The notes: generated from the letters alone by a model not told the origin. A stretch of DNA of 64,000 bases from Acidobacteriota bacterium (GCA_039028635.1 JBCCHV010000019.1:28343-92342); one strand, 5' to 3'; shown: positions 3,524-40,199, counted from the first letter of the stretch. Translations and numbers: made by a program.

Positions 3524-3525
3524 GG

Positions 3526-4614: not shown

Positions 4615-4728
4615 GTCAACCTTCTTCCTTTGACTTCCCGACGGCAGCGCCGGAGGACCAGCGGAGAGGTGGTCTCGGAGCCCGGTCGGTGAGCAGCGAA
4701 CAGCGCCGGGGCGAGCCCCGGCAGAGAT

Positions 4729-5643: not shown

Positions 5644-5697
5644 AGAGACCTCCAGGTTCATGATTCCAGATTAGAGAAAGGCTCAGAAGGCCAAAAA

Positions 5698-10969: not shown

Positions 10970-11005
10970 GCTTGATTCTTTCGCAGCATCTTTATCTAGC
11001 CGAGC

Positions 11006-15823: not shown

Positions 15824-17350
15824 ATGACCGCTCCCAATCGGGCCCTTTCTTGGCCGCTGGTGTTGATTCCCGGCCTCAAGCTCCTGCTCCATGCCCTGAC
15901 CTTTCGCGGCTACGGCATCTTCCGCGACGAGCTCTACTACGTCGCCTGCAGTCAGCGCCTCGACCTCGGCTACGTCGATCATCCGCCCCTCTCGATCGCC
16001 CTGCTCGCCGCCTGGCGGGGGCTCTTCGGCGAGTCGCTGCTGGCGATGCGCCTGGCGCCGGCCCTCGCCGGAGCCCTCACCGTGCTGTTGGTCGGCCTGA
16101 TCACCCGCCAGCTCGGCGGACGCTCCTTCGCCCAGATCCTCGCCATGACCGCTGCCGGCACCGCTCCGGTGATGCTGGCCCTGCACCACTACTACTCGAT
16201 GAACGCCCTCGATCTGCTGGTCTGGGCCGCCGCCGGGTGCTGGCTGTTGCGTCGTCCCCAGGCCGGTCCGCGAGCCACCTGGTTGGGCCTCGGCGTCCTC
16301 TGCGGCCTCGGTCTGCTCAACAAGATCAGCGTCCTTTGGCTCGGCGCCGGTCTCCTCGTCGCCATTCTCGCCACCCCCTTGCGCCGCGACCTGCGCCAGC
16401 CCTGGCCGTGGCTCGGCGGCGCCGTTGCCGGGGCGATCTTTCTCCCCCACGTCCTGTGGCAGATCGGGCACGGCTGGCCGACCCTCGAGTTCATCGCCAA
16501 TGCCACCGGCGAAAAGATGGTCAGGGTCGCCCCGCTGGACTTCTTGCTCGGCCAGGTCGAGATGATGAGCTTTTTCATCGCACCCCTCTGGCTGGGGGGC
16601 CTGGCCTGGCTACTCCTCAGCCGCCGCGGTAAACCCTTCCGAAGCCTTGGCTGGATTTACTTGACGGTGTTCGTGATCCTCGCCGCCAGCGGCAGCTCCA
16701 GGCCGAGCTACCTGGCTCCCGCCTACGGCTTCCTGCTCGCCGCCGGAGCCGTCGCTTTGGAGAACCTCACCAGCGGCAGGCTCGGTCGGTGGCTGCGGGC
16801 TGGAGTGGCGGTGATCGTCGTCGCCGCTGCCGCCCTCGTCGCGCCCTTCGGCATGCCTCTCCTGGCCGTCGACGACTACATCACCCACGCCCAGCGGCTG
16901 GGAGTCGAGCCTTCGACCTCGGAGCGCCGCGAGCTCGCCGCCCTGCCGCAGTTCTATGCCGACATGCACGGCTGGCAGAGGATCGCCGACGCCGTGGTCG
17001 AGGTCTATCGCAATCTTCCGGAGGCCGAGCGCCGACAGGCCGCCGCCTTCGCGCCCAACTACGGGGTCGCCGGCGCCATCGAGGTGTTGGGCGGCGACCT
17101 CGGCCCGCCGGTGATCAGCGGACACAACAACTACTGGCTCTGGGGCCCCGGCGAGGCCAGCGGCGAGGTGGTGCTGGTGGTCGGCGGCGAGCGCGACGAG
17201 CTGGCGGAGAGCTATCGCTCCGTCGAGCTCGCCGCGGTGGTCGACTGCGGCCACTGCCTGCCGTCCGAAAACCAACGGCCGATCTTCGTCGCTCGCGGCC
17301 TGCGCGCCCCGGTCGACGACGTCTGGCGGTCCGTCAAGCACTTCGACTGA
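15824..17350 (+). CDS. Glycosyltransferase family 39 (ArnT/PMT-like membrane glycosyltransferase)
   Basis: Polytopic protein with the GYGIFRDELYY motif near the N-terminus typical of GT39/GT83. Start ambiguous between 15803 and 15824 (GGAGGG precedes the second ATG). Confidence 0.75.
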   Translation: MTAPNRALSWPLVLIPGLKLLLHALTFRGYGIFRDELYYVACSQRLDLGYVDHPPLSIALLAAWRGLFGESLLAMRLAPALAGALTVLLVGLITRQLGGRSFAQILAMTAAGTAPVMLALHHYYSMNALDLLVWAAAGCWLLRRPQAGPRATWLGLGVLCGLGLLNKISVLWLGAGLLVAILATPLRRDLRQPWPWLGGAVAGAIFLPHVLWQIGHGWPTLEFIANATGEKMVRVAPLDFLLGQVEMMSFFIAPLWLGGLAWLLLSRRGKPFRSLGWIYLTVFVILAASGSSRPSYLAPAYGFLLAAGAVALENLTSGRLGRWLRAGVAVIVVAAAALVAPFGMPLLAVDDYITHAQRLGVEPSTSERRELAALPQFYADMHGWQRIADAVVEVYRNLPEAERRQAAAFAPNYGVAGAIEVLGGDLGPPVISGHNNYWLWGPGEASGEVVLVVGGERDELAESYRSVELAAVVDCGHCLPSENQRPIFVARGLRAPVDDVWRSVKHFD

Positions 17351-17408
17351 GCTGCGCCGGCGAGGGCGTGTGCAGCGAGGGCCGAACCCAGGGGCACGCC
17401 GGCCGCCG

Positions 17409-18089
17409 TCAATCGGGCTCGGTGAGCTCCGCCACTTCTCGAATCCAGCGATCCGAGCGCCGCTCGCGATGGCGCCCGGCGATGCGCTCGCGAGCTTCGC
17501 CGAGGGTCTCCGGAAACTCGACGAAGACGGCCGCCAGCAAGCGCTCCTTGGGCGGGATCCCCAGACGCTCGAAGGCTTCCGGCGAGCGCAGCTGACCGCC
17601 GCTCGACCAGTAGGTCCCCATGCCGTGGGCGGTCAGCATGAGAAGCAGGTTCTGGACCATCGCCGAGCTCGCCGCCAGGTGCTCCTCGTCGGTCGTCACC
17701 TGACTGTCCTTGCGTTCTTCGAGGTGGTAGAACTGCGGCACCCAGGTCACCACGACCAGCGCCCCGCAGGCGTACATCATGTTGGGCAGCTTGTTGGACG
17801 GCGTCATCTCCGGGAACCAGTCGCGCATCTTCCCGGCCAAGCGCTGGCATTCCGGATGCCACAGGACGTGGGCCCGCCACGGCTCGGCGAGGCCGCCATC
17901 GCCGCGGAAGAAGTGGAACGGAGCCCAGCCGGCGACACGCAGGGACTCGAGAACTCGCTGCCGGTTGGTCTCCACCGCCGCCGGCGAGAAGGCCGCGGCA
18001 TCGTCCGCACTGCCCATCACTTTGAAAGTCTTGCGGCCACGGATGGCGGCCGCCACAGCTTGCGGATCGGTTAATGATTGATCTGCCAA
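17409..18089 (-). CDS. Nitroreductase-family protein
   Basis: 226 aa; nitroreductase-fold motifs (RGRKTFKVMGS..., C-terminal MGTYWSSG region); immediately downstream of acs. Confidence 0.75.
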   Translation of the reverse strand: MADQSLTDPQAVAAAIRGRKTFKVMGSADDAAAFSPAAVETNRQRVLESLRVAGWAPFHFFRGDGGLAEPWRAHVLWHPECQRLAGKMRDWFPEMTPSNKLPNMMYACGALVVVTWVPQFYHLEERKDSQVTTDEEHLAASSAMVQNLLLMLTAHGMGTYWSSGGQLRSPEAFERLGIPPKERLLAAVFVEFPETLGEARERIAGRHRERRSDRWIREVAELTEPD

Positions 18090-18099
18090 TTTGAAGTCC

Positions 18100-20043
18100 T
18101 CACGCGGTCGGCGATCCGTCGCCCCGGTGGGCCGCCACCAGCTTCTCCACCACCGCCGGGTCGGCGAGGGTCGAAATATCGCCGAGATCGTCGTAGTTGC
18201 CGGCAGCGATATTGCGCAAAATGCGGCGCATGATTTTGCCGGATCGTGTCTTCGGAAGGCCCGGCGCGAGCTGAATGCGGTCTGGACGGGCGATCGGCCC
18301 GATGGCGTGCCGCACCTGTTCCTTGAGCATGCCGATCAGCTCTTCCGGATCGGTCTCGTGGTAGTCCGGCGTGATCAGCACATAGGCGAAGATGCCGGTC
18401 CCTTTGATTTCATGAGGATAACCCACCACCGCCGCCTCGGCGACGGCGTCGTGGGCCACCAGCGCGCTCTCCACCTCGGCGGTACCGAGACGGTGCCCGC
18501 TGACGTTGAGGACGTCGTCGACACGGCCGGTGATCCAGTAGTAGCCATCGGCATCGCGATGGCAGCCATCGCCGGTGAAGTAGAGCCCTGGGTACTGGCT
18601 GAAGTAGGTCTCCCGGAAGCGCTCATGGTCGCCGTAGAGGGTGCGCGCCTGGCCCGGCCAGGAACGCGCCATGCATAGGTTTCCACGCACGTCGTCGCCG
18701 GCGATGACGGCCCCGTCATCGTCCACCAGCACCGGCTCGACGCCGAAGAAGGGCAAGGTCGCCGAGCCCGGCTTGGCCGGCGTCGCTCCCGGCAAAGGCG
18801 TGATCAAAATGCCGCCGGTTTCGGTTTGCCACCAGGTATCGACGATGGCGCAGCGGCCGCCGCCGACGACATCGTGGTACCACTGCCAAACCTCCGGATT
18901 GATCGGCTCGCCGACGGTGCCGAGAACGCGCAGCGAGTCACGCCGAGAGCGACTCACCCACTCGTCGCCCTCACGGGCGATAGCGCGTATCGCCGTCGGC
19001 GCGGTGTAGAAGACGGTGACTCCGAGATCGTCGACCAGCCGCCAGTAACGGCCGGCATCGGGATAGAGCGGCGTCGACTCGAACATCACCGTCGTCGCGC
19101 CATTGGCCAGCGGCCCGTAAATGATGTAGCTGTGGCCGGTGATCCAACCGATGTCGGCGACGCAGGCGTAGACATCGTCCGGCCCGACATCGAACACCAT
19201 CTCGTGAGTCAAGGCGGCATAGACCAGATAGCCACCGGTGGTGTGCATCACGCCCTTCGGCTTGCCCGTCGAGCCCGAGGTGTAGAGGATGAAGAGCGGC
19301 GACTCGGCGTCCATCCACTCGGCCGGACAAACCGGCCGCTGGCGCGCCAGCTCGTCGTCCAGCCAGTGATCGCGACCGGCCTCCATCGCCGGCTGGTGGG
19401 CGGTCCGCCGGGCCACCAGGACGGCGTCGATGGCGAGGCCGCGAACGGCTTCATCGGTGGTCTCTTTGAGGGGAATGGTCTTGCCGCCCCGCAGCCCCTG
19501 GTTGGCGGTCACCACCAGACGGCAACCGGCGTCTTCGATGCGCTCGCGCAGCGCCTCCGCCGAAAATCCGGCGAAGACGATCGAGTGCACCGCCCCGATG
19601 CGGGCGCAGGCCAGCATGGTGTAGGCGAGCTCCGGAATCATCGGCAGGTAGATGCAGACGCGGTCGCCGCGGCGAACGCCGTGGGCCTTGAGCACATTGG
19701 CCATGCGCCCGACCTCACGCTGTAGCCGGGCGTAGGAGATGTGCTCGTACTCGCCGGCCTCGTCGCGAGCCCAGATGATCGCCGTCTTCTCCGGCTGCCG
19801 GGCGGCATGGCGGTCGACACAGTTCCAGGCGACGTTGAGGCGACCTCCGGCATACCAGGAGATATCGACCTCGTGATAGTCCCAGGTACCCGCCCGGCGC
19901 GGCTCCTGGAACCACTCGAGACGCTCCGCCTGCCGTTTCCAGAAGCCCTCGGGATCGTCCAACGACTCGCGGTACAGACGGCGATACTCCTCCAGGGACG
20001 GCACGTGGGCATTCTTGGCGATCGCAGGCTTCACCGGAATCAT
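18100..20043 (-). CDS. acs: Acetyl-coenzyme A synthetase
   Basis: 647 aa; full-length match to Acs (N-terminal [31 protein letters not shown]-binding [12 protein letters not shown]). Confidence 0.95.
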
Positions 20044-26404: not shown

Positions 26405-27682
26405 ATGCAACACTTCAAAGCCCTCCTCCTCGCCGGCACCCTGGCTCTCGTTGTCGCCACGCCCAGCGTGGCGGACATCTCGCGCGACCCGAACGGAGTC
26501 AACGTGTCGAGCCAGGGCGCAACGACCGTCTTCATCACCTTCGGCAATCTGCAAAACCAGGTACCGGTAGAGGCCACTTGGTGCGGCGAGCTGATCCCCG
26601 CCGCCCCGGACCTCGGCCTGCGCTGTGATCCGGCCACCGTCTTCGGGCGCCTGCCGATCCGCTTCGACCAATCGCGCCTCGCCGGCAGCGCCTTCACCGA
26701 CATCATGTCGATTCCGCCCTCCGTCGCGCGCCGCGCCTACCAGGCGGCGGCCGCCGGCGAGACCTCGTCCTTCTTCTACGTCCGACGCTTCGTCTCAACC
26801 GTCGGCGGACCGGACGAGTACGTCTTCGTGACCTGCCGCCTGGCCGGCGGTGGCGCACGGGTGCCGCTCGCCCTGCTCGACGTCCAGCTGCGCTTCGCCA
26901 GCGACCTGCCGGTGGTTTCGGTGTTGACCGGCGACCTGCCACCGCAGCTCGAGGCGGAGATCTCCTACAACGGCACCGGCCGTCTCGAGGGTCGCTGGGA
27001 AGTGGTGCTGCCGGGGGATGATCCGCCGACCAGCCGCGACCTGCTGACGGAGGCCTCGCTGCCCATCGAGGAGCGTCCCCTGCAGCGCCGCTACCTGGAG
27101 ATCGGCCGCTTCAACGAGTTCCTGCCGCCCACCGGCCGGGTGGTCTTGCCAGGACCGGACCCACAGCTCCTTCCGACCGAAGTCGAGGGCCTGCACCAGG
27201 TCCTGCTGCGCATCGAGGCGAGCGACGATAAAGAAGGAGACTCGAATCTGGCCGCCGCCGGGGCCGGCCAAGGGGTGGTCCACAGCGGTGCGGTGGCCGG
27301 CTTTCCCCTGCCGGCGCTGCGCTACTTCGTGGGCAGCGCCCCGACCGGCTGGGCCGCTTCCGCCGGCAACGGCCTCGAGCTGATCGCTCCGCCGCAGGAC
27401 TCCGAGGTCGCGGCCACCGAGCTGATCTTCCGCTGGCACCTCGCCCGCGATGCGGTGGTCTACCGCCTCGAGATCGAAACCGCCGCCGGCGGGGCGCTGC
27501 ACTCGGCCCTGCTGCAACAGGGCATCGGCAGCTACCAGGCGCCGACCTTCGTTGCCGCGGCGGCGGCCGACAAGGAGCTGCGCTGGCGGGTGCTGGCGCT
27601 GCTGCCGGAAGACCGCGAGCTCGGCCGCACGGACTGGCGTGGACTGCGCCTTGCCGCCCCCGAGGAGAGCGATTCGCCGTAA
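26405..27682 (+). CDS. Secreted hypothetical protein
   Basis: 425 aa; signal peptide MQHFKALLLAGTLALVVATPSVAD; 8 nt after the beta-barrel gene, so in the same operon. Confidence 0.55.
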   Translation: MQHFKALLLAGTLALVVATPSVADISRDPNGVNVSSQGATTVFITFGNLQNQVPVEATWCGELIPAAPDLGLRCDPATVFGRLPIRFDQSRLAGSAFTDIMSIPPSVARRAYQAAAAGETSSFFYVRRFVSTVGGPDEYVFVTCRLAGGGARVPLALLDVQLRFASDLPVVSVLTGDLPPQLEAEISYNGTGRLEGRWEVVLPGDDPPTSRDLLTEASLPIEERPLQRRYLEIGRFNEFLPPTGRVVLPGPDPQLLPTEVEGLHQVLLRIEASDDKEGDSNLAAAGAGQGVVHSGAVAGFPLPALRYFVGSAPTGWAASAGNGLELIAPPQDSEVAATELIFRWHLARDAVVYRLEIETAAGGALHSALLQQGIGSYQAPTFVAAAAADKELRWRVLALLPEDRELGRTDWRGLRLAAPEESDSP

Positions 27683-27817: not shown

Positions 27818-29095
<1,278 letters not shown>

Positions 29096-29168
29096 GGTTC
29101 GATCCCCCTTGACGGTCAGTCCATCCCCAACGATTAGCAACGACAGCGAGCGATCACCGGTCCCGCCC

Positions 29169-30770
29169 TCAGGCGAGGTCCGGACCTGCGGTGAGGAACG
29201 GCCGAAACCGCTCCTCCAAGAACAGACGACGGGCGACGTCGCGGGCCTGGCCGAAGGACGGCGCCGGAGCCCCCAGCTCGCCTTCGATGCGGCGCAGCTC
29301 GTCGTCGAACAGGCGCGACACCAGGTCCGCGGTGACCTCGGACCCGTCGTCGAGGACGACCCGATGACGCAGCTGCTGCCAGACCTGAGCGCGCGAGATC
29401 TCGAGGGTCGCGAGGTCTTCCATCAGCCCATCCCAGGCGACACAGCCGACGTCCCGTAGCCAGCCTTCGAGGTAGGCGATGCCGACCCGCAGATTGGTGC
29501 GCAGGCCGGTGACGGTGCGCGGGCCACCGCCGCGCGGCAGCAGATCCGGCGGAGCCGACAGCTCCGGCATCACGTCGAGCTGGTGGCGGCGCGGGAAAGC
29601 GGTCAGGGCGGGGGCGATGAAGTACGGATGGGAGACCCAGCAGCCGTCGTGGCCCTGGGCCGCTTCGGCCCCCTTGTCGGCCATCACCTTGGCGGTCTGG
29701 CGCTCGCGCTCCTCGGCCGTGCGTCCGGGCGTGAAGGCCGCCATGCCACCCATCGCGAAGGCACCGTGGCGGTGGCAAACGTGCACCAGGTAGTCGGCAT
29801 AGGCCTTCATCCAGGGGCTTTCCATGGTGACCGCGGCGCGATCCGCCAGCACCCGGTCGGGATGCTCCTTCAAGACCTTGATATCGCTGAAGATCTTGTC
29901 CCAGCGGCCGACGTTGAGGCCGGCGGCGCGGTCCCGCAGCTGCCACAGGATCTCCTCGACCTGGAAGGCCGCCGGCAGGGTCTCGATGAGGAAGGTCACC
30001 CGCAGGCAGCCCGCCGCCAGCCCGAGGGACTCCTCGAGGAGGCCGAAGAGGCGATGCCACCAGGCGGCCTCGCGATGATGCTCGACCTTCGGCACGTAGT
30101 ACTTCGGCGTCCGCCCCTGCTCGAGCAGCTCGCGGGCGGTCCAGAAAACCGCCAGGGCGAGGTCGAAGAGGCCGGCGCAAACCGCCTCGCCGTCGACCGC
30201 GACATGGTCTTCGTCGAGATGCAGGCCGCGGCAGCGCACCATGATCAAGGGACGGTCCGCAGGCTCCAGACGATAGACCTTGGCCGGCCGCTCCGCCGTC
30301 GCCGGCCGCTCATGACTCAAGGTGCCCGCGACCGCCCGGTCGAGGTTCTGGACTCCCTGGACGACGTTTGCCCAGCACGGCTTCATGGAGTCCTCGAAAT
30401 CGAGCATGGCGGCGTCGGCGCGAGCGCCATCGGCCTGCCGGCTGAGCATGTTGATCACCATCTTGGGATCGTGGATCGGACCGGTGATCTCGACCCGCCG
30501 CTGCAGCAGGTCGTCCGGCAGCGGAGCGATCTGCCACTCGCCGCGGGCCGCCGGCAAATCGTCGACAAAGCCGGGCAGAGCGCCGCCGTCCCAGCGCTGC
30601 TGGCGCCGTCGTCGGGCCGCCAGCAGCTCCCGGCGCTCGCCCTCGAGGGCACGGTGCAGGCGGACCAGAAGCTCTTGGACGGGCTGCGGCAAGATCTCCT
30701 CAGCTGCCGCAGTGCGACTTCCAGCGGCCCAGCCGAAGGAAGAGACCTCTCGGATCGATTCAACGGGCAT
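29169..30770 (-). CDS. aceB: Malate synthase A
   Basis: Malate synthase A family (…RRVEITGP…DFEDS…); start at MPVESIRE with GAGGAGG RBS 5 nt upstream (the ORF-track 64-codon extension is rejected). Confidence 0.9.
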
Positions 30771-30798
30771 TTCATCCTCCTCGCATGACGATGAAAAC

Positions 30799-30827
30799 AT
30801 CGTAGCGGCAACGCCGCAACGCGTCAA
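30799..30827 (-). promoter_or_regulatory. Candidate sigma70-type promoter of aceBA (TTGACG - 17 nt - TACGAT)
   Basis: On the minus strand: -35 TTGACG (30822-30827), 17-nt spacer, -10 TACGAT (30799-30804), about 25-30 nt upstream of the aceB ATG at 30770. Confidence 0.45.
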
Positions 30828-31022
30828 GAGAGGGCAAAATGCCGCAATAAGACGTGAGACCTCGGACGCTCCGAAGGGCGATACGGCTACGAGGTCGACA
30901 CCACTGCCCTCGCCGAAGAGCCGGATCCACGCGCAACAGCGCCAAGAGCCCAAGAAAGCCACCCTCGAGGGGCTCCTCGGCGGGGAGTGAGCCGGACGCT
31001 GCGACCGCCTGCGCTGCTGGAC

Positions 31023-32789
31023 CTATTCCACCGCGGCCGACCAAGCCGTGGTGTTGCCGGTTTCGAAGCCATCGTCGAAGATCTCGCGGTTGCCCACGGC
31101 ACCGATGAACTCGTCGAATCCCAAGTCGAAGGTCCCGATGCCATTGATGTTGCCGGCGCTGTCGTAGCCTCGCTGCTGCAGGTCGATGTCGGTCCAGGTA
31201 GGTAAGAAGTTCTCGTTGCAGAAATCGATCGCGGGAGAGGTCGAGTCGAGGTGCAGGTTGCCGCCGTCGGGGTCCACGAAGCGCGGATCCGCGCCGACCA
31301 CCGAAACCCCCGCCACCATGTTAGTGGCGTCGTCCATCAACAGGCACCACCCGGTGTTGCCGGGACCTTCAGAACCCCGGGTGTCCTCCAGAATGCTGGC
31401 TTGGATGTCGATTGTCGCGCCGCTCGACGAGCTCGCCGCAAAGCTCCAGGCGAGCGTTTGACCGCCGCCGTTGACCAACCAGGCGTTGCGCGCCAGCGAA
31501 AGGAAACCGGCCTCGACCTGCGCTCCGTTGGCCGCCTCGAGAACCGCCGAACCACGGTTGTTCCAAAATGCCATGCCTTCGAGCAGAATGCGAGAGGAAG
31601 GTCCATTCGCGCGCATCACCGGTCCGGGAGAACCGCTGCCATAGTTTTCATTCACAAAACCTCGCGACAATTCAGCCCGGCCCCCGGAGTCGACATAGAG
31701 CGCGCTGCCGTTCAGGGCATCGCAGCGATTGCCGACCAACGTGTTGCAAAAGGGCGCCTCAGGACATGCCACGGAACTCGATCGATTGAGCCTGAGAGCG
31801 GCCCCGTCCACCACCGCCACACCGCCACCACCGAACAGAGCCTCGTTGTCATGGATCTCGAGATTCGAGGCTTGCGCCGTCGTTCCGGCTCCCTGGAGGT
31901 AGATACCGCCGCCAAAGTCGGCGAGGTTTTCTTGAATCCTGGTCGCCGCCACTGCATCACCTCCAGCGAATAGGTCAGCCCCTGTCGCCAAAAAGATTCC
32001 ACCGCCATTGTCGCTGGCCCGGTTTTGCGCCACCAGCGCTCCGGGACCTAATGCGATAGTGCACCCCTCGCTGGCCGAGATCCCCCCTCCGTTGACCGCC
32101 CGATTGCGCAGTACCCGACCGTTGATCTGGATGTGAACCCCATGACCGGTTCCTGCCCTGGAAAGAATGCCACAGGAGATACCGCCGCCCGACTGGTCCG
32201 CATTGTCCGGGCCCACGTTCTCATCGATCAATGATCTGAAATCGACCGAGATCGTCGCCCCAAAGGTCGCGCGCATCGCCGGCGCCCCGTGAAAGATCTC
32301 GACGTTCTCCAGATCGACGCGAGCACCGGAAATGTCCACGGCGATACGGGTCGAATCGTCGCTGGGGTTTTCTCCGACAATGAACAGATCGCGCAGAATC
32401 ACCCGACGCTGCTGGACACCGTTGCTCAGGATCGCAAAGGGCCCCCAGAAATTTCCATTGCGACTGCCTATGACCAGAGTCCGGTGTTGACGTGCATCTC
32501 CTCCACAGCTCAACCAGCCTCCACTGATGACCAAGAGATCATCGCTTTGAGCGTCGTTGATCAACACATCTTCCGGGAAGAGCTCGTTCGCCGTCAGACG
32601 GATCTCATGAGCTCCGGCCACGGAATTCGCCAGATTCACGGCGTTCTGGATCGAAGTGGCATCGCAGTCCGGGCCCATACCAACGCGATAGATTGCAGCT
32701 TCGATCGGACCACAGGCCAGCCCGGTCAAGAAGAAACCCAACAGAGCACCGACCCTCCGGAAGACGGTGCAGGATCTTGAGGTGAGCAT
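31023..32789 (-). CDS. Secreted right-handed parallel beta-helix (pectate-lyase-fold) protein, paralog 1
   Basis: 588 aa; signal peptide; many Gly/Asn-rich beta-helix rungs (NGGGISASEGC, DNGGGIFLATG, DFGGGIYLQGAG); conserved C-terminal module ...IFDDGFETGNTTAWSAAVE. Confidence 0.75.
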   Translation of the reverse strand: MLTSRSCTVFRRVGALLGFFLTGLACGPIEAAIYRVGMGPDCDATSIQNAVNLANSVAGAHEIRLTANELFPEDVLINDAQSDDLLVISGGWLSCGGDARQHRTLVIGSRNGNFWGPFAILSNGVQQRRVILRDLFIVGENPSDDSTRIAVDISGARVDLENVEIFHGAPAMRATFGATISVDFRSLIDENVGPDNADQSGGGISCGILSRAGTGHGVHIQINGRVLRNRAVNGGGISASEGCTIALGPGALVAQNRASDNGGGIFLATGADLFAGGDAVAATRIQENLADFGGGIYLQGAGTTAQASNLEIHDNEALFGGGGVAVVDGAALRLNRSSSVACPEAPFCNTLVGNRCDALNGSALYVDSGGRAELSRGFVNENYGSGSPGPVMRANGPSSRILLEGMAFWNNRGSAVLEAANGAQVEAGFLSLARNAWLVNGGGQTLAWSFAASSSSGATIDIQASILEDTRGSEGPGNTGWCLLMDDATNMVAGVSVVGADPRFVDPDGGNLHLDSTSPAIDFCNENFLPTWTDIDLQQRGYDSAGNINGIGTFDLGFDEFIGAVGNREIFDDGFETGNTTAWSAAVE

Positions 32790-32906
32790 CGATTCAGCCT
32801 CCTAGAGAGATTGGACATCGGCCGAAGGGCCGGTGGCCCTTTTCGGGGACCGTCGCCCTCGCCCTCCGGCCGTTACCTCGGTTCGTCTACCGGACCCGAG
32901 GCGCTA

Positions 32907-34673
32907 CTACTCCACCGCCGCTGACCAAGCCGAGGAATCGCCGGATTCGAAGCCGTCTTCGAAGATCTCGCGGTTGCCCACGGCACCGACGAACTCGTCG
33001 AATCCCAAGTCGAAGGTCCCGATGCCGTTGATGTTGCCGGCGCTGTCGTAGCCTCGCTGCTGCAGGTCGATGTCGGTCCAGGCGGGAAAGAAGTTCTCAT
33101 TGCAGAAATCGATCGCCGGCGAGGTCGAGTCGAGGTGCAGGTTGCCGTCGTCGGGGTCCACGAAGCGCGGATCCGCCCCGACCACCGAAACCCCCGCCAC
33201 CATATTGGTGGCGTCGTCCATCAGCAGGCACCACCCGGTGTTGCCGGGACCGGCAGAACCCCGGGTGTCCTCCAGAATGCTGGCTTGGATGTCGATTGTC
33301 GCGCCGCTCGACGAGCTCGCCGCAAAGCTCCAGGCGAGCGTTTGACCGCCGCCGTTGACCAACCAGGCGTTGCGCGCCAGCGAGAGGAAACCGGCCTCGA
33401 CAGTCGCCTCGTGGACCGCCTCCAGCACCGCCGAGCCACGGTTGTTCCAAAACGCCACCCCTTCGAGCCGCAGGTGCGAGAAGGCTCCCTCGACCCGAAT
33501 CACCGGCCCCGGTGAAGGAGAACCCACGTTTTGGTTGACGAAGGCGCGCGAAATCTCGGCACGCCCCCCGGGGGCGACGTACAGGGCACTGCCATTGAGC
33601 GCATTGCAGCGATTGCCGACCAAGGTGTTGCAGTACGGCGCGTCGGGGCAGCTCACCGCACTCGACCGGTTGAGCCTCAACAGGGCATTCTGATTCACCA
33701 GCACCCCGCCACCGCCGAAGAGGGCCTCGTTGCCGTGGATCTCGAGGTTCGAGGCTTGCGCCGTCGTTCCCGAGCTTCGCAGGTAGAGCCCGCCGCCATA
33801 ATCCGCCAGGTTGGAGTGGATCCTGACCGTCGAAACAGAGTCGCCGCCGGCAAAGAGATCGGCACCGGTCTCCAGATAGAGGCCACCGCCACTTCCGCTA
33901 GCTTCGTTGGAATGGACGAAGGCTCCCGGCTCCAGAACGACCGTACAGCCGTGGCGGGCCAAGATGCCCGCTCCATTCACCGCTCGATTGAGCTGCACCC
34001 GACCGCGAATTCGCACCACGGTGTTCTCACCGCTGTTCGCGTCGGAACGGGAGCCACAGGAGATCCCCCCTCCGAGGAATTGATCATTGTCCGGCGAAAA
34101 ATTCTCCGAGATGGTCGAGGCGGAGTCAACGAAGACGTTGGCCCCGAAGAGCGCCTGAAGTCCCGGTGATCCATGGTAAATAATCGACGACTCGAGCTCG
34201 ACCCTGCCCCCCCGGACATCCACCGCGACCCGGGTCAGCTCCTCACCGGGAGTCAGGGTGAGCCATTCGCCCACGATGAACAGGTTGCGCAGAATCACTC
34301 TGCGCTGCGGCGCACCGAGATCGGATCTGGCGATTTGCAACGGCCCCCAGGTGTTGCCGTTGGGCAACCCCGCGATCCCCGTATCCCCGGACGCCGTCGA
34401 GCTGGTGCAACGGTTCCAGCCACCGCTCAAGACCAACCGAGCCGCGTTGATGTCGTTGTCGATTCGGACATCCTCGCGAGCGAGCTCGTTCTCCGTCAGG
34501 CGAATTTCGTGCTCGCCCGGAGCATTCGCCCATTCGACCGCCTGCTGGACCGAGGACGTATCGCAACCGGCACCGGTGCCGACGCGAAAAATGGCGCCCT
34601 CGGCGGAACCGCCAAATCCCAGGGCACCCGCCGCCAGCAAGAATCCGCAGGCACTTTTCAAGCATCCAGACAT
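32907..34673 (-). CDS. Secreted right-handed parallel beta-helix protein, paralog 2
   Basis: 588 aa; same architecture as paralog 1. The C-terminal ~190 aa are nearly identical and the N-terminal part is about 60% identical. Confidence 0.75.
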   Translation of the reverse strand: MSGCLKSACGFLLAAGALGFGGSAEGAIFRVGTGAGCDTSSVQQAVEWANAPGEHEIRLTENELAREDVRIDNDINAARLVLSGGWNRCTSSTASGDTGIAGLPNGNTWGPLQIARSDLGAPQRRVILRNLFIVGEWLTLTPGEELTRVAVDVRGGRVELESSIIYHGSPGLQALFGANVFVDSASTISENFSPDNDQFLGGGISCGSRSDANSGENTVVRIRGRVQLNRAVNGAGILARHGCTVVLEPGAFVHSNEASGSGGGLYLETGADLFAGGDSVSTVRIHSNLADYGGGLYLRSSGTTAQASNLEIHGNEALFGGGGVLVNQNALLRLNRSSAVSCPDAPYCNTLVGNRCNALNGSALYVAPGGRAEISRAFVNQNVGSPSPGPVIRVEGAFSHLRLEGVAFWNNRGSAVLEAVHEATVEAGFLSLARNAWLVNGGGQTLAWSFAASSSSGATIDIQASILEDTRGSAGPGNTGWCLLMDDATNMVAGVSVVGADPRFVDPDDGNLHLDSTSPAIDFCNENFFPAWTDIDLQQRGYDSAGNINGIGTFDLGFDEFVGAVGNREIFEDGFESGDSSAWSAAVE

Positions 34674-34865
34674 AGCATTCTCCCAGGCGAGATAGGGTTG
34701 ACTGCACGGCCCTCGAGGGGCTCCAACGCTCTTTCCTGGACCGTCGCTCGTACTCGGCGGGTGTTACGCCTATACTCTCGAGAACTCCTCCAAGCCCCGA
34801 TGACACACTTCGCTCCATCCCCCCGAGAGACTTCGAAAGGGACCTCGGAGAGCCGCCAGCAAGTG

Positions 34866-37800
34866 ATGCCAGGCCAGGTCCGATGGCTCCGGGCACTGCT
34901 GGGGGCCGCGCTGTTGGCAGCGGGCCCTCTGGTGGCGCAAGCCCCCTTGCCCGCGGCGGGCGGTGTCCTCGACCTCGACCTCGATGCCGGCGAGGAACGG
35001 GCCTTCTCGGTCCCGTTATCGGCCGGAGAGCTCCTCCATGTCGTGGTCGAGCAGAGGACCGCAAACGTCGAGCTGGAGCTGTTCGAGGCTGCCACTTCGG
35101 TGAGACGCACCGACCTCCGACCCTGGGCCTGGGGCGAGGAGTTCCTGTTCGCCCTGCCGACGGAGGAGACGCTCTATCGGCTGGTGGTTCGATCGCTGAG
35201 CAGCCGCGCTGGCAGCGCTCGCCTGCGCGTCGCAAGTCGTCGCCTCGCCAGCAGCCGAGACCGGCTACGCTTCGAAGCCGAGTCCGCCTACGCTTCCACC
35301 CGCTTCACCCGCGCCCAACGGGGCCTGGGGCTGGTGACCGACCAATGGGTCCAGCGGGCCGAACGAGCCGCCCGGATGTTCGAGGCTCTCGATCTCCCGG
35401 AGCGGCAGGCCTTCGCCCTCAAGCGGGTGGGCGACCTCCAAATTCAGCTCGGACGCCCACTCGACGCCCTGGCTCCGCTCGAAGAGGCCATCGCCATCGC
35501 CCAACGCGACGGCTACCCCTGGGCCGAGTGCCGAGCGCGGCTCACCTGGGCGGAGGCGGTCTACGCCCGCAGCGTCGATGAAGCGCTGGCCGAGGAGGAG
35601 CGCATTCTCTCCCTGACCGCCGCCGGAAACCTCCTTCCCTGCCAGCTATCGGTGATCCGTCTCCTGATCTACGACCTCAATCAGAAGGGCGACCACCGGC
35701 GATCGATCGAGCTCTTCGAACAGGCCTTGCCGATTGCCGACCAGCTCGATGCTCCCTGGTACCACAGCGCCTTGCACATGAATGTGGGCAGCGCCTATCT
35801 CGCCCGCGGCCAACTCGTCGAGGCGATCGAGGTCTTCTCCATCGCCCACCAGGGCTATCGAGATCTCGGCGACCATCGCAGCGCCATCGCCGCTCTCGAC
35901 AACCAGTTGACCGCCCGCCGGGCTCTCGGCGACGAGGAAGGCTTGCTCGCAGCCCACCGGAAGATCGTTGCCTTCGTTGCGAATCACGGCGAGATTCAGG
36001 ACGTTCTCGGCGCCCAGGTCAACTACGGTGAGACCCTCCTCGACCTCGACCGGCCAGCCGCCGCCGAAGAGGTCTTCCGACGCGCCTCCAGGCGCGCGGA
36101 GGGCGCTCCCGTGGAGGCCCAGGCGCCGGTCTGGAGAGGACTCGGTCAGGCGCTCTTGGAGAGCGGAGCCCTGAGCGCTGCCAAACCCTTCCTGGATCGC
36201 GCACGCCGAGCTCACCAGGCGTCCGGCAACGTGCCTCGTACCATTCGCGACCAAGAGCTCCTGGGACGCTGGCAGGAGGCATCGGGCCAGCTGCAAGCTG
36301 CCACCAGCTCCTACCGAGCCGCCGCCGGCCGGGCGGCGCAGCTTCATCTGCCCCCTCTCGAGCTGAGCTCGCGAGTGCGGGCGGCGGAGCTCCTCTGGCG
36401 GCTCCAGGACCCACGGGCCCAGGCCGAGCTCAAGCGCGCCATCGACCTGGTCGAAGACGTTCGCAAGCGCCTCTTCACGGATCGCTTCCGATCCTCCTCA
36501 GCCAAGCTCCTCCGCCGGGTCTACGATCTCGCCCTCGAAATGGAGCTGTCGCCACGCGAATCATCGGCGACCGGAGGCCAACCTTCCGCTGGTCAGATCG
36601 AGCGCGCCTTCTTGCTCGCGGAACGCTCCCGCGCGCGCTCTCTGAGGGAATTTCTGGAGGCCTCCCGAAAAGCCGTCACGGCGACCATCGATCCACGGCT
36701 CGTCGAACGCGAAAGCCGCCTCCTCGAGCGCGCCGAAGGCCTTGCCCAGGAGCGCTTCGAGCTCCTTCAGGAGCCGCTCGATCCGAACCCCGAAAGGCTC
36801 TCTGAGCTCGATGCCGAGATCGCGGAAACGGAGCTCGGTCTCGAAATCCTCGCCGCCGAACGGTTTCGACGCGACCCCCGGCGGGCGTCCCTCCTCGATG
36901 CTCGGCCGCTCGACCTCACCGAGGCCCAAGAGAGCCTCGGTGAGCGCACCCTGGTTTCCTATCACCTGCTCGAGAACCGGCTGCTGGTCTTCCTGCTGAG
37001 CAGAGAGGGCCTGGCGATGGAGACGCTGCCGGCGGGCGAAGACCTCCCCGCCACGGCCATCACCCTTCGTGAAGCCCTGAGTCAACCTTCACGCTTCACG
37101 GCACGCTTCCGCGACGCATCCCTGCACTTGGGTCGTGCCCTCTTGACGCCTCTCGCCGGCCATCTCGACGGCAAACGGCTGATCATCAGTCCCGATGGTT
37201 GGCTGCACCACGTACCCTTCGAGACCCTCCTGCTCGAGGCACCACAGGCCGAGGACTCATGGGCCGACCTCAAATTCGCCGTCAAGGCCTACGAGATCAG
37301 CTATGCGCCTTCGGCCGGGGTCATGGCCAGCCTTGGGCAAAACTCGAGCGGCGAGCAGAAAAGCACCCTGGTCGCCCTCGGCGACGCCCTGGCGAACGGT
37401 GCGGAGCCGGTAACCGACGGGCCCGGAAACGCCAGCGGCAGGGGCCTCTTCGGCTCTTTGCCCCACGCTCGGGAGGAGGTCGAGAACCTCATCGGACTCC
37501 TTTCGCCCGAGAGCGTGGACCCCGCGCCTGTTGAGATTCAAGGCCATCTCTTCGTCGGCCACCGAGCCACCGAAACGGTGGCCCGCTCGGACCTCGCGAA
37601 GGCGGCTCGTTTCCTTCACTTCGCCACCCATGCCTTCGTCGATTCCGACATCACCAGTCAATCGGCGCTGGTCCTGACGCCGGATCACGCCCACGACGGC
37701 CTCCTGCAACTCGGCGAGATTCTCCGTCTCCGGTTCAACGCCGACTTGGTCACCCTCTCCGCCTGCCAGAGTGCCGTCGGCCGGCAGCAGAGCGGTGAGG

Positions 37801-38039
37801 GGATCATGAGCTTGGCGCGAGGCTTCCTTTTCGCCGGAGCCTCGTCCCTGGTGGCAAGCCTTTGGGAGGTCTCGGACCGTGCCACCGGCGACCTGATGGG
37901 CAGTCTCTATCGGGGAGTCTTGGCAGAGAAAACGACAGCAGAGTCCTTGCGCGAGGCCAAGCTCGAGCTGCTGCAGAAGCCGGCATCGGCGCATCCCTAC
38001 TACTGGGCTCCGTTCATCCTGATCGGCGACCCGAACTGA
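34866..38039 (+). CDS. Periplasmic TPR-repeat CHAT-domain protease (caspase-like)
   Basis: Signal peptide MPGQVRWLRALLGAALLAAGPLVAQA; long TPR-like helical region; C-terminal CHAT domain with catalytic His (FLHFATHAF) and Cys (VTLSACQSA). The upstream in-frame part of the ORF-track ORF overlaps the divergent gene and is rejected. Confidence 0.8.
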   Translation: MPGQVRWLRALLGAALLAAGPLVAQAPLPAAGGVLDLDLDAGEERAFSVPLSAGELLHVVVEQRTANVELELFEAATSVRRTDLRPWAWGEEFLFALPTEETLYRLVVRSLSSRAGSARLRVASRRLASSRDRLRFEAESAYASTRFTRAQRGLGLVTDQWVQRAERAARMFEALDLPERQAFALKRVGDLQIQLGRPLDALAPLEEAIAIAQRDGYPWAECRARLTWAEAVYARSVDEALAEEERILSLTAAGNLLPCQLSVIRLLIYDLNQKGDHRRSIELFEQALPIADQLDAPWYHSALHMNVGSAYLARGQLVEAIEVFSIAHQGYRDLGDHRSAIAALDNQLTARRALGDEEGLLAAHRKIVAFVANHGEIQDVLGAQVNYGETLLDLDRPAAAEEVFRRASRRAEGAPVEAQAPVWRGLGQALLESGALSAAKPFLDRARRAHQASGNVPRTIRDQELLGRWQEASGQLQAATSSYRAAAGRAAQLHLPPLELSSRVRAAELLWRLQDPRAQAELKRAIDLVEDVRKRLFTDRFRSSSAKLLRRVYDLALEMELSPRESSATGGQPSAGQIERAFLLAERSRARSLREFLEASRKAVTATIDPRLVERESRLLERAEGLAQERFELLQEPLDPNPERLSELDAEIAETELGLEILAAERFRRDPRRASLLDARPLDLTEAQESLGERTLVSYHLLENRLLVFLLSREGLAMETLPAGEDLPATAITLREALSQPSRFTARFRDASLHLGRALLTPLAGHLDGKRLIISPDGWLHHVPFETLLLEAPQAEDSWADLKFAVKAYEISYAPSAGVMASLGQNSSGEQKSTLVALGDALANGAEPVTDGPGNASGRGLFGSLPHAREEVENLIGLLSPESVDPAPVEIQGHLFVGHRATETVARSDLAKAARFLHFATHAFVDSDITSQSALVLTPDHAHDGLLQLGEILRLRFNADLVTLSACQSAVGRQQSGEGIMSLARGFLFAGASSLVASLWEVSDRATGDLMGSLYRGVLAEKTTAESLREAKLELLQKPASAHPYYWAPFILIGDPN

Positions 38040-38220
38040 CCTGGCCGTCTCTCCAACTTGCAGCGACGAGAATGTATGTCCCTGAATCTGCGGCGTGATC
38101 CCACCCTCCTGCTCCTCGCACTCCGGCGACGACGACGCCGGCACGCCGGGGGCGACCGCCATGCAGCTTCAGAACCGAGACCCTCTCGCCGAGAAACCTG
38201 GTGAGAAATCCGGGCTAGCC

Positions 38221-38805
38221 ATGGCCATCGAGGGAATCGAAGCGACGGACCAAGACCGCCTCACCATCGAGGGCTTCCTCGCCGGCGACCGTGAGGCCGT
38301 ACAACAGGTGCGCAGCTGGATTCGACTCGCTGCGGGGCGATACCGTCGTTTCCTGGCAAACGACCTCGAGGATCTCGAGCAAGAGACCTTGACCACCCTG
38401 CTGGTCAAGCTGTCGAGCCAGCACTTTCGCTTTGCGAGTCGACTGGAAACCTATGTCAGTCGCATCACGCACTACAAGTGCATTGATCGCCTGCGGGCGC
38501 GCTCCCGACGGACGTGGGTCGATCTCGAAGAGCTGGGTCTGATCGCTGCGGAGCGATCGGCCTTCGAAGCCATCAAATCCCAACAGGACCGCGAAATGGC
38601 GATTCGGGTCGTCACCAGCATGACGCGAAGCTGCCAGGAGCTCTGGTCCATGATTCGCCAGGGACTGAGCTATCTCGAGATGGCGCGCCGCACCGGCGTG
38701 GCGCCAGGAACCCTGAGGGTCCGGGTCCTCCGTTGCCGGCAGAAAGCTATCGCCGAGCGTGAACGGCTGATGGCATCTGAAAACCCGCGGGGAGGTAACG
38801 AATGA
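38221..38805 (+). CDS. ECF-family RNA polymerase sigma factor
   Basis: sigma70 region 2 (FLAGDREAVQQVRSWIRLAAGRYRRF...ETLTTLLVKL) and region 4 HTH (LSYLEMARRTGVAPGTLRVRVLRCRQKA). Start could also be the ATG at 38161. Confidence 0.75.
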   Translation: MAIEGIEATDQDRLTIEGFLAGDREAVQQVRSWIRLAAGRYRRFLANDLEDLEQETLTTLLVKLSSQHFRFASRLETYVSRITHYKCIDRLRARSRRTWVDLEELGLIAAERSAFEAIKSQQDREMAIRVVTSMTRSCQELWSMIRQGLSYLEMARRTGVAPGTLRVRVLRCRQKAIAERERLMASENPRGGNE

Positions 38806-38925
38806 AGATCCTTAGCGACCGTCCCTTCGGAGGTGAGGGCGCCCTTCCACTGCGCCGAAGTCCCTTGGAGTCGGGACGCCGCCAACCGTCTGCTGACCGG
38901 TCTGACTCGGAAGGCAAATAGCCCC

Positions 38926-39726
38926 ATGGATTGCAAGGCCACCCGCGAGCTCTTACCTTTTCTGTTGAATGGGAGCCTGGCCGACTCCGAGCGTCGGGAG
39001 GTCCTCGACCACCTCCACCAGTGCTGGGATTGCCGGGAGGACTTGCGTCGGGCCGCCGTGGTCTGGGTTGCCACCGAGAGTCACCCGACGGCAGAGATCC
39101 TGCTCGACTACGCCGAAGGACGTTCCCTCGACAGCTTCCCGCGCGACCTGCTGGAACAACACCTCGCGACCTGCGACGCCTGCTCCAGGGCCGTCGAAGC
39201 GGCCAGCGGAGCGATGACGGCACGAGTCGCCTGGCCTGGGCCCCCGATCGACACCGCGATGAGCCCTCCGCCTCGCCGCCCTCGCCGACCCCTGCTGGGT
39301 ATCGCGGCGGGCTTGGTCTTGCTGACCGCCTCGGCAGGGTGGCTGGGTTCGCGGTTGTCCCCGGAGACCCCCGTGGCCAACGTGCACATCGCCGAATTGT
39401 CGGCAGTTCAGGAACGGGTGCGAAACCTCCGGATTGGGCGCCTCGAGATCCCGCGCTCCCAGGCGGCCGCCCTCATCCTGATCCATCCCCTCGACCTTGC
39501 AGCCGACGAGTCGACGGACGAAGTGCGATTTCGCATCGTGGTGACCGACGATGGCGGTCTCGGGGTCTTCACCCTCGAGGACCTCGAGCGCAGCGAGAAT
39601 GGTGACTTCACCCTGCTCATCCCTGCCGACACGCTGCCGCTCGGCTCGCTGAGCCTCGAGCTCGAACAGCAGATCCTTGGGGAGTGGTCGCCGGTTGGCG
39701 AGTACCAGATCCAGAGTACCAACTGA
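38926..39726 (+). CDS. Anti-sigma factor, zinc-finger (ZAS, HxxxCxxC) with one TM and a periplasmic domain
   Basis: N-terminus MDCKATRELLPFLLNGSLADSERREVLDHLHQCWDCRED carries the canonical ZAS motif; TM PLLGIAAGLVLLTASAGWLGS; directly downstream of the ECF sigma gene. Confidence 0.7.
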   Translation: MDCKATRELLPFLLNGSLADSERREVLDHLHQCWDCREDLRRAAVVWVATESHPTAEILLDYAEGRSLDSFPRDLLEQHLATCDACSRAVEAASGAMTARVAWPGPPIDTAMSPPPRRPRRPLLGIAAGLVLLTASAGWLGSRLSPETPVANVHIAELSAVQERVRNLRIGRLEIPRSQAAALILIHPLDLAADESTDEVRFRIVVTDDGGLGVFTLEDLERSENGDFTLLIPADTLPLGSLSLELEQQILGEWSPVGEYQIQSTN

Positions 39727-39754
39727 CCGCGCCGGGTCCTGAACCCGAACCGAA

Positions 39755-39795
39755 TGGTACGGCTAGGAGGACTTGAACCCCGAACCTCGAGTTCG
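39755..39795 (-). repeat. Partial copy of the tRNA-Arg 3' end (acceptor/T-arm, att-like direct repeat)
   Basis: TGGTACGGCTAGGAGGACTTGAACCCCGAACCTCGAGTT versus the tRNA-Arg sequence at 44604 TGGTGCGGCTAGGAGGACTTGAACCCCCGACCTTGAGTT: about 36/40 identical, same orientation; no matching 5' half of a tRNA follows. Confidence 0.6.
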
Positions 39796-39932
39796 GCTTG
39801 CGCATCTCCGCCAAGGGCAGGAAGAGCTTCGTCTTCCAATACCGCAACGCCCAGAACCGGACACGCCGGCTCACCCTCGGGGCGGCTTCGCGAACCGCAA
39901 TCGGCCAGCGCGAAGGAGTTGCCCTAGGCGAT
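39777..39932 (+). pseudogene. Remnant of a P4-type tyrosine integrase (N-terminal arm-binding/DUF4102-like segment only)
   Basis: In-frame translation EFGLRISAKGRKSFVFQYRNAQNRTRRLTLGAASRTAIGQREGVALGD resembles the integrase N-terminal motif G-L-Y-L-R-V-S-P-S-G-S-K-S-W-V-F-R-Y-R...R-R-x-T-L-G. No upstream Met; the frame runs out of the tRNA fragment and loses similarity after about 50 codons. Confidence 0.5.
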
Positions 39933-40199
39933 GCGCTGGCGCAGCATCAGCACCGCCACCGCGGCGACGGCGCCGACGGTCAGGTGACCACACCAGGCGA
40001 TCGCACCCTGCGCCACCGGCAGGAACCAGAGGTCGACGACGAGGGCCAAGGCGAGCAGCGAGAACCCGGCGACGCGCAGCCCCCGCGACGCACCGGCGGA
40101 AAGGCGGCGGCCGAAGAGATCCCCCTGATGACGGGGCATCGAGCCACACAGGCAGGTGAATCCCAGCCCGGTGAAGAAGATTCCCAGCAGGGCGCTCAC
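39924..40199 (-). CDS. Small integral membrane protein (DUF3325-like, PepSY-associated)
   Basis: 91 aa with 3 predicted TM helices; its ATG overlaps the PepSY-TM gene stop (ATGA). Confidence 0.5.
   Translation of the reverse strand: MSALLGIFFTGLGFTCLCGSMPRHQGDLFGRRLSAGASRGLRVAGFSLLALALVVDLWFLPVAQGAIAWCGHLTVGAVAAVAVLMLRQRIA

Follow-up and report, generated by a model that had tools for sequence, protein, structure and literature searches.

Tandem beta-helix genes beside an ECF sigma factor module

We analyzed a 64,000-nucleotide stretch of DNA from an Acidobacteriota bacterium (GCA_039028635.1, JBCCHV010000019.1:28343-92342; hereafter the window, with a GC content of 63-74%) that carries two adjacent genes for secreted beta-helix proteins. 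Gene A (NCBI AAF604_09875), the diverged paralog, encodes a predicted right-handed beta-helix protein, as does gene B (AAF604_09880). Both lie on the minus strand, at exactly positions 31023-32789 (A) and 32907-34673 (B), and are separated by a spacer of 117 bp. Each codes for 588 amino acids, in agreement with a first-pass annotation of the sequence that had described two head-to-tail paralogs of this length and spacing. B is the positional and sequence ortholog of a single-copy gene, here called O (P0003, AAF481_02455), in a sister metagenome-assembled genome (MAG; GCA_039030395.1). O is the sole relative that we could set beside the pair, and it has the same divergent CHAT, sigma factor and zf-HC2 anti-sigma genes as neighbors. 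No close relatives of B were found in metagenomes of the Joint Genome Institute, and a family scan with alignment A4 returned only six weak loci.

An AGGAGG Shine-Dalgarno sequence lies 7 nt before the ATG of A, which is at position 32789. The NCBI annotation starts the gene 16 codons later (572 codons), but the 588-codon reading appears the better one because this ribosome-binding site precedes its ATG. Both products are predicted from their sequences to have Sec-type signal peptides (A, MLTSRSCTVFRRVGALLGFFLTGLACGPIEAA / IYRVG; B, MSGCLKSACGFLLAAGALGFGGSAEGA / IFRVG). As the first-pass annotation had it, the pair adjoins a divergent module, which we found to comprise genes for a TPR-CHAT protein, a sigma factor of the extracytoplasmic function (ECF) type and a zf-HC2 anti-sigma factor. 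Scanning the locus for sigma-70 promoters and intrinsic terminators yielded only chance-level matches.

Mosaic divergence of the two genes

Divergence between A and B is not uniform along the genes. In a codon alignment read in 30-codon windows, amino acid identity ranges from 0.23 to 0.67 up to column ~420 and from 0.87 to 1.0 thereafter, and third-position identity rises at the same column from 0.23-0.63 to 0.83-1.0. A maximum chi-square test placed the breakpoint at aligned codon ~410 (chi2 of 186, compared with a maximum of 21 in 1000 permutations; 0/1000). Nucleotide identity is 61.5% over the 1184 nt of the 5' part, and the longest identical run in the alignment is 130 nt, compared with a permutation maximum of 38 nt. 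The abrupt shift near codons 410-425 agrees with the mosaic pattern that the first-pass annotation had reported, as does the amino acid identity of codons 31-425 (60.7%), which it had estimated at about 60%. Similarity between the genes ends at the stop codon, where the flank is only ~50% identical, and a constant register of 1884 nt is kept over most of the gene length.

The earlier description of the last ~570 nt as 95-100% identical was right about a sharp 3' homogenization, which spans 559 nt at 93.0% identity, but not about its evenness. The core of the gene conversion tract covers codons ~425-571 (positions 31075-31517 in A and 32959-33401 in B, both on the minus strand), where 443 nt have 16 differences (96.4% identity). 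Just upstream is a transition zone with 82-84% identity (minus strand, 31518-31600 in A and 33402-33484 in B), which may be left from a conversion that was older or partial, or may mark the boundary of a heteroduplex. Within the core lies the 130-nt perfect run (minus strand, 31370-31499 in A and 33254-33383 in B). Because this run is longer than expected if the differences in the tract were uniform (P=0.007), it suggests a nested, more recent conversion event or a local coldspot. Downstream of the core, the last 52 nt encode the tail motif DGFE(T/S)G..AWSAAVE. Their identity is only 81%, and 10 of the 26 differences fall within them, a significant enrichment (Fisher p=6e-5). The tail motif therefore falls beyond the tract or at its margin.

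Such a mosaic could be mimicked by a repeat that was chimeric or mis-joined, and the source is a short-read MAG. However, both copies are intact 588-codon open reading frames, each with its own promoter motif and ribosome-binding site, and the tract retains 16-39 differences. Perfect runs reach only 130 nt, not enough to confuse an assembly graph built with large k; the k141_ contig names of sibling MAGs would suggest such an assembler for the present contig as well. Moreover, no mis-join could yield a second copy with a 61% identical 5' part. We thus consider an assembly artifact very improbable.

Gene conversion after an older duplication

The comparison with O separates the history of the tract from that of the rest of the genes. 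Over codons 31-425, amino acid identity is highest between B and O (75.6%) and lower for A-B (60.7%) and A-O (57.1%), whereas over codons 426-597 it is highest for A-B (91.8%; 75.4% for A-O and 74.3% for B-O). Four-fold degenerate sites, which are 0.45 (A-B), 0.44 (A-O) and 0.53 (B-O) identical over codons 31-425, are 0.90 identical between A and B over codons 426-597 and only 0.44 (A-O) and 0.46 (B-O) in the other pairs. Similarly, Nei-Gojobori estimates of synonymous divergence (dS) for codons 31-410 are 1.44 (A-B), 1.30 (A-O) and 1.00 (B-O). In the tract (codons 411-580), dS is 0.156 for A-B, a contrast of ~9-fold with the 5' part, compared with 1.23 for A-O and 1.13 for B-O.

Three-taxon site patterns switch in the same way. 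In codons 31-425, B and O agree against A at 234 sites, A and B against O at 108, and A and O against B at 96. In codons 426-597, by contrast, A and B agree against O at 111 sites and the other two patterns have 15 and 10. The last 17 codons (4/6/2) do not group A with B. The 5' part thus supports the tree ((B,O),A) and the tract the tree ((A,B),O). The discordance of the two trees shows that gene conversion followed an older duplication. This bears out the gene conversion or recombination that the first-pass annotation had proposed, now with a contrast at synonymous sites, switched site patterns and a breakpoint supported by permutation.

For A and B, the ratio of nonsynonymous to synonymous divergence (omega) has values of 0.25 for the 5' part and 0.20 for the tract; both parts are under purifying selection. 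The first-pass annotation had pictured a beta-helix that diversifies while a shared C-terminal module is kept. The 5' omega of 0.25 and the saturation of synonymous sites do not demonstrate diversifying selection on the helix. Related to this picture is the possibility of a recent whole-gene duplication followed by fast diversification of the N-terminal two thirds, with constraint on the C-terminal third. The amino acid pattern taken by itself (61% compared with 92% identity) would fit, and an independent pair of the same family, described below, has an omega of ~1.4 in its N-terminal third. Yet synonymous and four-fold sites also differ 9-fold between the parts, omega is low in the 5' part, and the 5' part of B is closer to O than to A. 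Synonymous homogenization is confined to the A-B comparison and to the tract, which rules out constraint at the protein or nucleotide level, and we give this scenario almost no credence.

We weighed in the same manner whether the 3' identity could come from selection on the nucleotides themselves, for example because the segment contains an RNA, a gene on the antisense strand or a binding site. Long antisense open reading frames do overlap the tracts (31186-31461 and 33070-33345), as expected by chance in DNA with 65% GC. However, the segment is synonymously saturated when either A or B is compared with O (four-fold identity of 0.44-0.46 and dS of 1.1-1.2), so no nucleotide-level constraint is conserved across the orthologs. 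Such selection is as improbable an explanation as fast divergence.

Base composition suggests a direction for the exchange. GC content at third codon positions (GC3) is 0.66 in the 5' part of A and 0.84 in its tract, compared with 0.77 and 0.87 in B and 0.77 and 0.80 in O. The tract values of 0.84-0.87 fit the composition of B and O rather than the 0.66 of A. Because the tract of A is B/O-like in composition, the transfer probably ran from B to A. GC-biased conversion was also considered: third-position changes in the tract include 24 that gain GC and 12 that gain AT, a weak trend, and the idea was dropped.

The low GC3 of the 5' part of A, which is also below that of all neighboring genes (0.79-0.89), could alternatively mark A as a horizontally acquired homolog (xenolog) that landed beside B and was then partly converted by it. 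The near equidistance of A from B and O is consistent with such an origin. Against it, the genes are arranged head-to-tail and A has the same promoter motif as B at the same relative position, features that are hallmarks of local tandem duplication, and no donor lineage is known. Local duplication is favored because of the constant register, the equal length (588 codons) and the common promoter motif, and we regard horizontal acquisition of A as unlikely.

In the sequence of events that these comparisons show, an old tandem duplication came first, with synonymous sites between the 5' parts now saturated. After the split from the O lineage, non-reciprocal recombination overwrote an internal ~0.45-0.5 kb (codons ~425-571) that encodes the C-terminal cap and the helix rungs next to it, without the terminal tag. 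A single event suffices, perhaps with a second one nested within it at a later time; no ongoing maintenance or selection to keep a module is needed. We found no evidence for ongoing or phase-variable exchange between A and B.

Predicted fold and family of the proteins

Conserved features of the proteins point to a beta-helix. A 17-sequence family alignment (A1) has repeated N.A...GGG rungs with conserved cysteines, an end-cap motif (DP.F.D...G..HL...SPAID.C...D.D...RG.D....D.GA.E) and an invariant Phe in the terminal IF.DGFE. The family-invariant residues (Asn, Gly, Cys and the cap motif) look structural. AlphaFold2 run on A1 for gene B confidently predicted a right-handed beta-helix from about residue 25 to 515 (mean predicted local distance difference test score, pLDDT, of 78.7; predicted template modeling score of 0.82), which supports the fold suggested in the first-pass annotation. 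The strands are short and repeat through residues 26-513 with a pLDDT mostly of 80-97, and residues 534-587 are disordered. The tract starts at about residue 425, inside the predicted helix. Since the rungs run on to about residue 515 of the model, the extent of the tract was set by recombination and not by a domain boundary. A tract that begins within the helix and excludes the tail motif is at odds with the earlier view that recombination keeps a shared C-terminal module. The conversion itself is an ordinary internal tract between old tandem paralogs, with boundaries that match neither domain nor tag.

The searches assigned the proteins neither to an enzyme family with the pectate-lyase-like fold nor to the Pmp autotransporters. 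In Pfam, the only match was a sub-threshold one to Chlam_PMP, in A only (17.3 bits, compared with a cut-off of 20.6), and no NCBIfam model matched A or B. A profile search of PDB sequences retrieved no relative. Neither these sequences nor above-threshold Pfam or NCBIfam models linked the proteins to an enzymatic family such as pectate or alginate lyases or glycosidases. Foldseek searches of PDB and BFVD with the AlphaFold2 model returned only generic beta-helix proteins (template modeling scores of at most 0.38 and 9-15% identity), among them phage tail and tailspike proteins, PL6 alginate lyases and DFA-IIIase. The sequence has no autotransporter barrel and ends 70 residues past the helix. 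A binding or structural role is more likely for A and B than a catalytic one.

At E<=1e-3, the family profile matches 147,962 representative clusters, and with the limit set to E<=1e-30 there are 11,610. The matches include many single-module proteins of 570-655 amino acids matched end to end, two-module fusions and giant multi-module proteins. Two of the fusions (P0029 and P0030) have two complete beta-helix modules in ~1185 amino acids, and the IF.(N/D)(S/G)FE tail is found at their very end only, not between the modules. An independent tandem pair (P0013 and P0010, at 158-1864 and 2100-3887 of locus L005, which has 35% GC) shows heterogeneous dS (0.17-0.57), with an omega of ~1.4 in codons 41-200 and ~0.3 elsewhere. 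Tandem duplication with fastest-changing N-terminal rungs thus seems to recur in the beta-helix family. A gene for a Ser/Thr kinase with TPR repeats lies 3 kb downstream of this second pair.

Distant family members in loci L002 and L004 adjoin pairs of genes for an ECF sigma factor (PF07638) and a Ser/Thr kinase with TPR repeats, and those in L005 are near a kinase. A family member from Marinicella has no such ECF or kinase neighbors. We located the pairs, in which the kinase has TPR repeats or a PD40 propeller, at 3844-7208 and 13186-15999 of L002 and at 6836-9920 of L004.

A predicted ECF regulon

Upstream of both A and B is a motif, GTAAC-N16-CGACGGTC, that suggests control by the neighboring sigma factor. 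The copy for A (32848-32876, minus strand) lies between the two genes, ~60-85 nt ahead of the start codon of A, and the copy for B (34739-34767, minus strand) is in the divergent intergenic region between B and the CHAT gene. These are the only two exact matches in the 64-kb window, where 0.02 would be expected. A single exact match in the O locus of the sister MAG (L001) is upstream of O (4972-5000, plus strand), and in all three genes the motif sits 60-85 nt 5' of the ATG. ECF promoters have an AAC-type -35 element and a CGT- or CGA-type -10 element, and the layout of the motif would correspond to such a -35/-10 pair.

Near-exact copies of the motif, in the general form GTAAC-N16-CGAC(G/C)GTC, also precede the anti-sigma gene in both genomes. 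The copy in the window (38795-38823, plus strand) has one mismatch, overlaps the last codons of the sigma factor gene and lies ~100 nt before the likely anti-sigma start. Its counterpart in the O locus (L001 1073-1101, minus strand; element GTAACGGATGAATATCGGCACCGACCGTC) is at the orthologous position. None of 124 other fetched loci has the motif. Its only recurrence, seen in both genomes, is before the adjacent anti-sigma gene. On this ground, A and B are predicted to be outputs of the module, and the two genes and the anti-sigma gene would form the regulon of the adjacent sigma factor. Each of A and B would then use its own ECF-type promoter under the TPR-CHAT, ECF sigma and ZAS anti-sigma module.

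The module is encoded on the plus strand. Its first gene (34866-38039) codes for a secreted, caspase-like TPR-CHAT protein (Pfam CHAT, E=3e-64) with the signal peptide MPGQVRWLRALLGAALLAAGPLVAQA; the His (HFATHA) and Cys (LSACQS) motifs read from its sequence are intact. The ECF sigma factor gene (38095-38805; Sigma70_r2 and r4_2) has an uncertain start codon. It is followed by the gene for the zf-HC2 (ZAS) anti-sigma factor (38926-39726), which has one transmembrane segment and a periplasmic C-terminal part. The open reading frame of the anti-sigma factor opens at 38833, and its likely start is MDCKATRELL. The TPR-CHAT protein and the anti-sigma factor are thus products of separate genes with the sigma factor gene between them, and the sister MAG has the same layout (L001 194-4766). 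We found no CRISPR genes and no genes for cyclic oligonucleotide-based antiphage signaling (CBASS) near the module.

On the other side of the pair are two genes of the glyoxylate shunt, encoding isocitrate lyase (27818-29140) and malate synthase (29169-30962). Just upstream of them, a gene at 26405-27682 (plus strand) encodes a 425-amino-acid protein that has a signal peptide but matches no model in Pfam or NCBIfam. The block of beta-helix, CHAT and sigma genes (30000-40000) has a GC content of 0.63-0.66 and a GC3 of 0.66-0.81, below the flanking housekeeping genes (GC3 of 0.84-0.88 in the isocitrate lyase and malate synthase genes), and the lowest GC3 in the block is that of the 5' part of A.

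A widespread C-terminal tag

The tail motif that escaped homogenization is, by its recurrence, a candidate signal in its own right. Its codons are at 31026-31085 in A (EIFDDGFETGNTTAWSAAVE), where they are not homogenized with those of B (32910-32969, EIFEDGFESGDSSAWSAAVE), both on the minus strand. Both tails are slightly atypical in ending AAVE. The consensus is (I/L)F-x-DGFESGDTSAWS-xx-VP-COOH, that is, (I/L)F.DGFESGDTSAWSxxVP followed by a stop codon. A six-frame regular expression search of locus L002 showed that three different proteins end in the motif: one of 202 amino acids (9250-9858), a beta-helix protein (10001-11752) and an FG-GAP protein of 978 amino acids (16327-19263). The tails of A and B thus appear to be copies, in the last ~20 residues, of a widespread C-terminal tag of secreted Acidobacteriota proteins. 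A shorter form (IFxDGFE-COOH) is present in some Gammaproteobacteria.

We scanned a collection of one genome per species with a degenerate nucleotide pattern that encodes DGFE[ST]G[DN]T[ST].W[ST], which matched at least 120 stretches (loci L006-L125); the counts that follow are among the matches listed. Nearly all come from Thermoanaerobaculia, Holophagae and other Acidobacteriota MAGs, often with several per genome, and a few are from Polyangiaceae, a Deltaproteobacteria MAG, Kangiella and the cultured Acanthopleuribacter pedis. The position of the tag is nearly fixed: exactly four residues, typically ..xxVP, follow ..W[ST] in 74 of the 113 in-frame instances, and of the 112 instances whose locus includes the stop codon, 102 have at most seven residues after the motif. 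The carriers are diverse. The 73 complete ones form 46 BLAST clusters, and 82 listed carriers match 73 Pfam families, including M36/InhA-like proteases, subtilases, FG-GAP, BNR, DUF11, LVIVD, multihaem cytochromes and beta-helix proteins. NCBIfam matches include 'myxosortase-dependent' and 'rhombosortase-dependent' M36 peptidases, choice-of-anchor B, J and Q, and rhombotarget A. In other lineages, choice-of-anchor families carry PEP-CTERM, MYXO-CTERM, GlyGly-CTERM or LPXTG signals. No Pfam or NCBIfam model recognizes the tag itself, since none matches more than 7 of the 82 listed carriers. Querying an index of 5.8 billion proteins with the 40-residue tail returned no shared words, and a literature search for 'GFESG' found nothing relevant.

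The search for the C-terminal module that had been proposed therefore found its tail motif on more than 100 diverse secreted proteins, mostly from Acidobacteriota. The idea that the tail is a sorting or partner-binding element gains from this portable, position-locked occurrence on many unrelated secreted proteins; its premise that the tag is the homogenized part does not hold. A transmembrane helix and basic cluster after the tag are absent from all but 2 of the 113 listed instances. Because the tag has no membrane anchor, its mechanism would differ from that of the sortase and exosortase class. That the tag represents an undescribed class of sorting, secretion or recognition signal is a tentative proposal, for which we would put the chances at somewhat below even.

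The two instances with a hydrophobic helix and basic cluster after the tag are at L083 5381-6307 (minus strand) and L107 98-898 (plus strand). In three loci (L048, L053 and L059) the tag is internal and is followed by 151-414 further residues without a recognized domain. We considered whether the tail could be the first strand of a LamG/ConA-like domain and rejected the idea, as no LamG match follows these rare internal motifs.

No protease recurs within 8 kb of the listed tag loci. The adjacent CHAT protease was also rejected as a general tag-processing enzyme, a CHAT gene being within 8 kb in only 2 of the 120 listed loci. Among untagged neighbors, genes for a Ser/Thr kinase that has repeats of the PD40 or TPR type are the most common (13 of 120; for example, L041 165-2819), sometimes accompanied by a gene for an unannotated protein of ~399 amino acids (7 of 120) or for an ECF sigma factor (5 of 120). 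The kinase and ECF counts are raw, without a background rate, and are only suggestive; enrichment near tag genes was not retained as a finding. As a bolder extension, periplasmic TPR sensors encoded beside ECF sigma factors, such as the TPR-CHAT protein and the Ser/Thr kinases with TPR repeats or beta-propellers, might read the free C-terminus of tagged proteins. DegS, which reads the C-termini of outer membrane proteins and thereby triggers sigma-E, is the model for this idea.

Overall interpretation and relation to known systems

We hold it to be very likely that the locus contains old tandem paralogs with an internal conversion tract, ECF-linked promoters and a C-terminal tag. Several points weigh against this interpretation. 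There is a single outgroup genome, and the order of duplication before speciation rests on near-saturated dS (1.44 compared with 1.0) and on asymmetry in nonsynonymous divergence. The lower GC3 of A would suit a xenolog as well as a paralog, and the tandem arrangement is that of the MAG assembly. Furthermore, the ECF link is drawn from motifs, and no motif copy lies upstream of the CHAT or sigma genes themselves. The parts most worth following are the predicted ECF regulon of the split module and the uncurated, widespread tag.

The conversion is a clean, well-bounded textbook case from a phylum with few documented events and adds little conceptually. The Bab outer-membrane adhesins of Helicobacter pylori, to which A and B may be compared, are surface proteins with a more variable N-terminal part. 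Partial gene conversion between prokaryotic paralogs has been surveyed (PMC6053082), and the babA, babB and babC genes are a known case (PMC4552749, PMC3960876). As in bab and other cases of concerted evolution, one segment is more similar between A and B than between either of them and the ortholog, with sharp breakpoints and homogenized synonymous sites. The products are likewise surface or secreted proteins, and the N-terminal part is the more variable. Unlike bab, A and B are in direct tandem, 1884 nt apart, their tract is internal and its 3' end stops short of the terminal tag, and they have no host-interaction context.

In their predicted beta-helix, A and B resemble Chlamydia polymorphic membrane proteins (PMP) and the ends of the NCBIfam 'choice-of-anchor Q' type. 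They have rungs of the form N.A...GGG(I/L/V) and the cap motif DP.F.....G..HL...SPAID.C...D.D...RG...D.GA.E, and their family, too, expands by duplication. Unlike Chlamydia Pmp proteins, they have no autotransporter beta-barrel and end in a hydrophilic tag of 20 amino acids.

To our knowledge, DdvA of the DdvS/DdvA system of Myxococcus xanthus, which controls antiviral islands, is the only characterized TPR-CHAT anti-sigma factor. It is a single transmembrane anti-sigma factor with a periplasmic TPR-CHAT part, for which autocleavage before the action of RseP has been proposed (PMC11506125). For this system and for the type III-E Craspase/Csx30/RpoE system (PMC10028731), CHAT-dependent proteolysis has been proposed to free the sigma factor. 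As in both systems, the locus described here combines a TPR-CHAT module with an ECF sigma factor and an anti-sigma domain that binds zinc. It differs from DdvA in that the TPR-CHAT protein is a separate protein with a signal peptide rather than a fusion to the anti-sigma factor. It differs from both in its predicted regulon of two secreted beta-helix genes and the anti-sigma gene. From its gene content, the locus looks like a split version of a DdvA-type TPR-CHAT anti-sigma factor. It would thus offer a second, simpler TPR-CHAT architecture with an identifiable, predicted regulon.

The tag invites comparison with small C-terminal sorting signals such as LPXTG, PEP-CTERM, GlyGly-CTERM and MYXO-CTERM, the architecture of which has been described (PMC11980579; Haft, bioRxiv 10.1101/2023.06.07.544157). 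It is unlike them in having no tripartite architecture, with neither a transmembrane helix nor a basic cluster. It is also unlike the C-terminal domain of the type IX secretion system, being ~20 amino acids long and predicted to be disordered rather than a beta-sandwich. Like the sortase and exosortase signals, however, it is found at the extreme C-terminus, is portable over dozens of secreted families and occurs in several copies per genome. Furthermore, its carriers in the poorly studied Acidobacteriota include 'choice-of-anchor' and other families that use PEP-CTERM, MYXO-CTERM or GlyGly-CTERM elsewhere. If the tag is a sorting signal, its carriers would constitute a new set of cargo proteins and suggest an export or attachment pathway as yet unknown.

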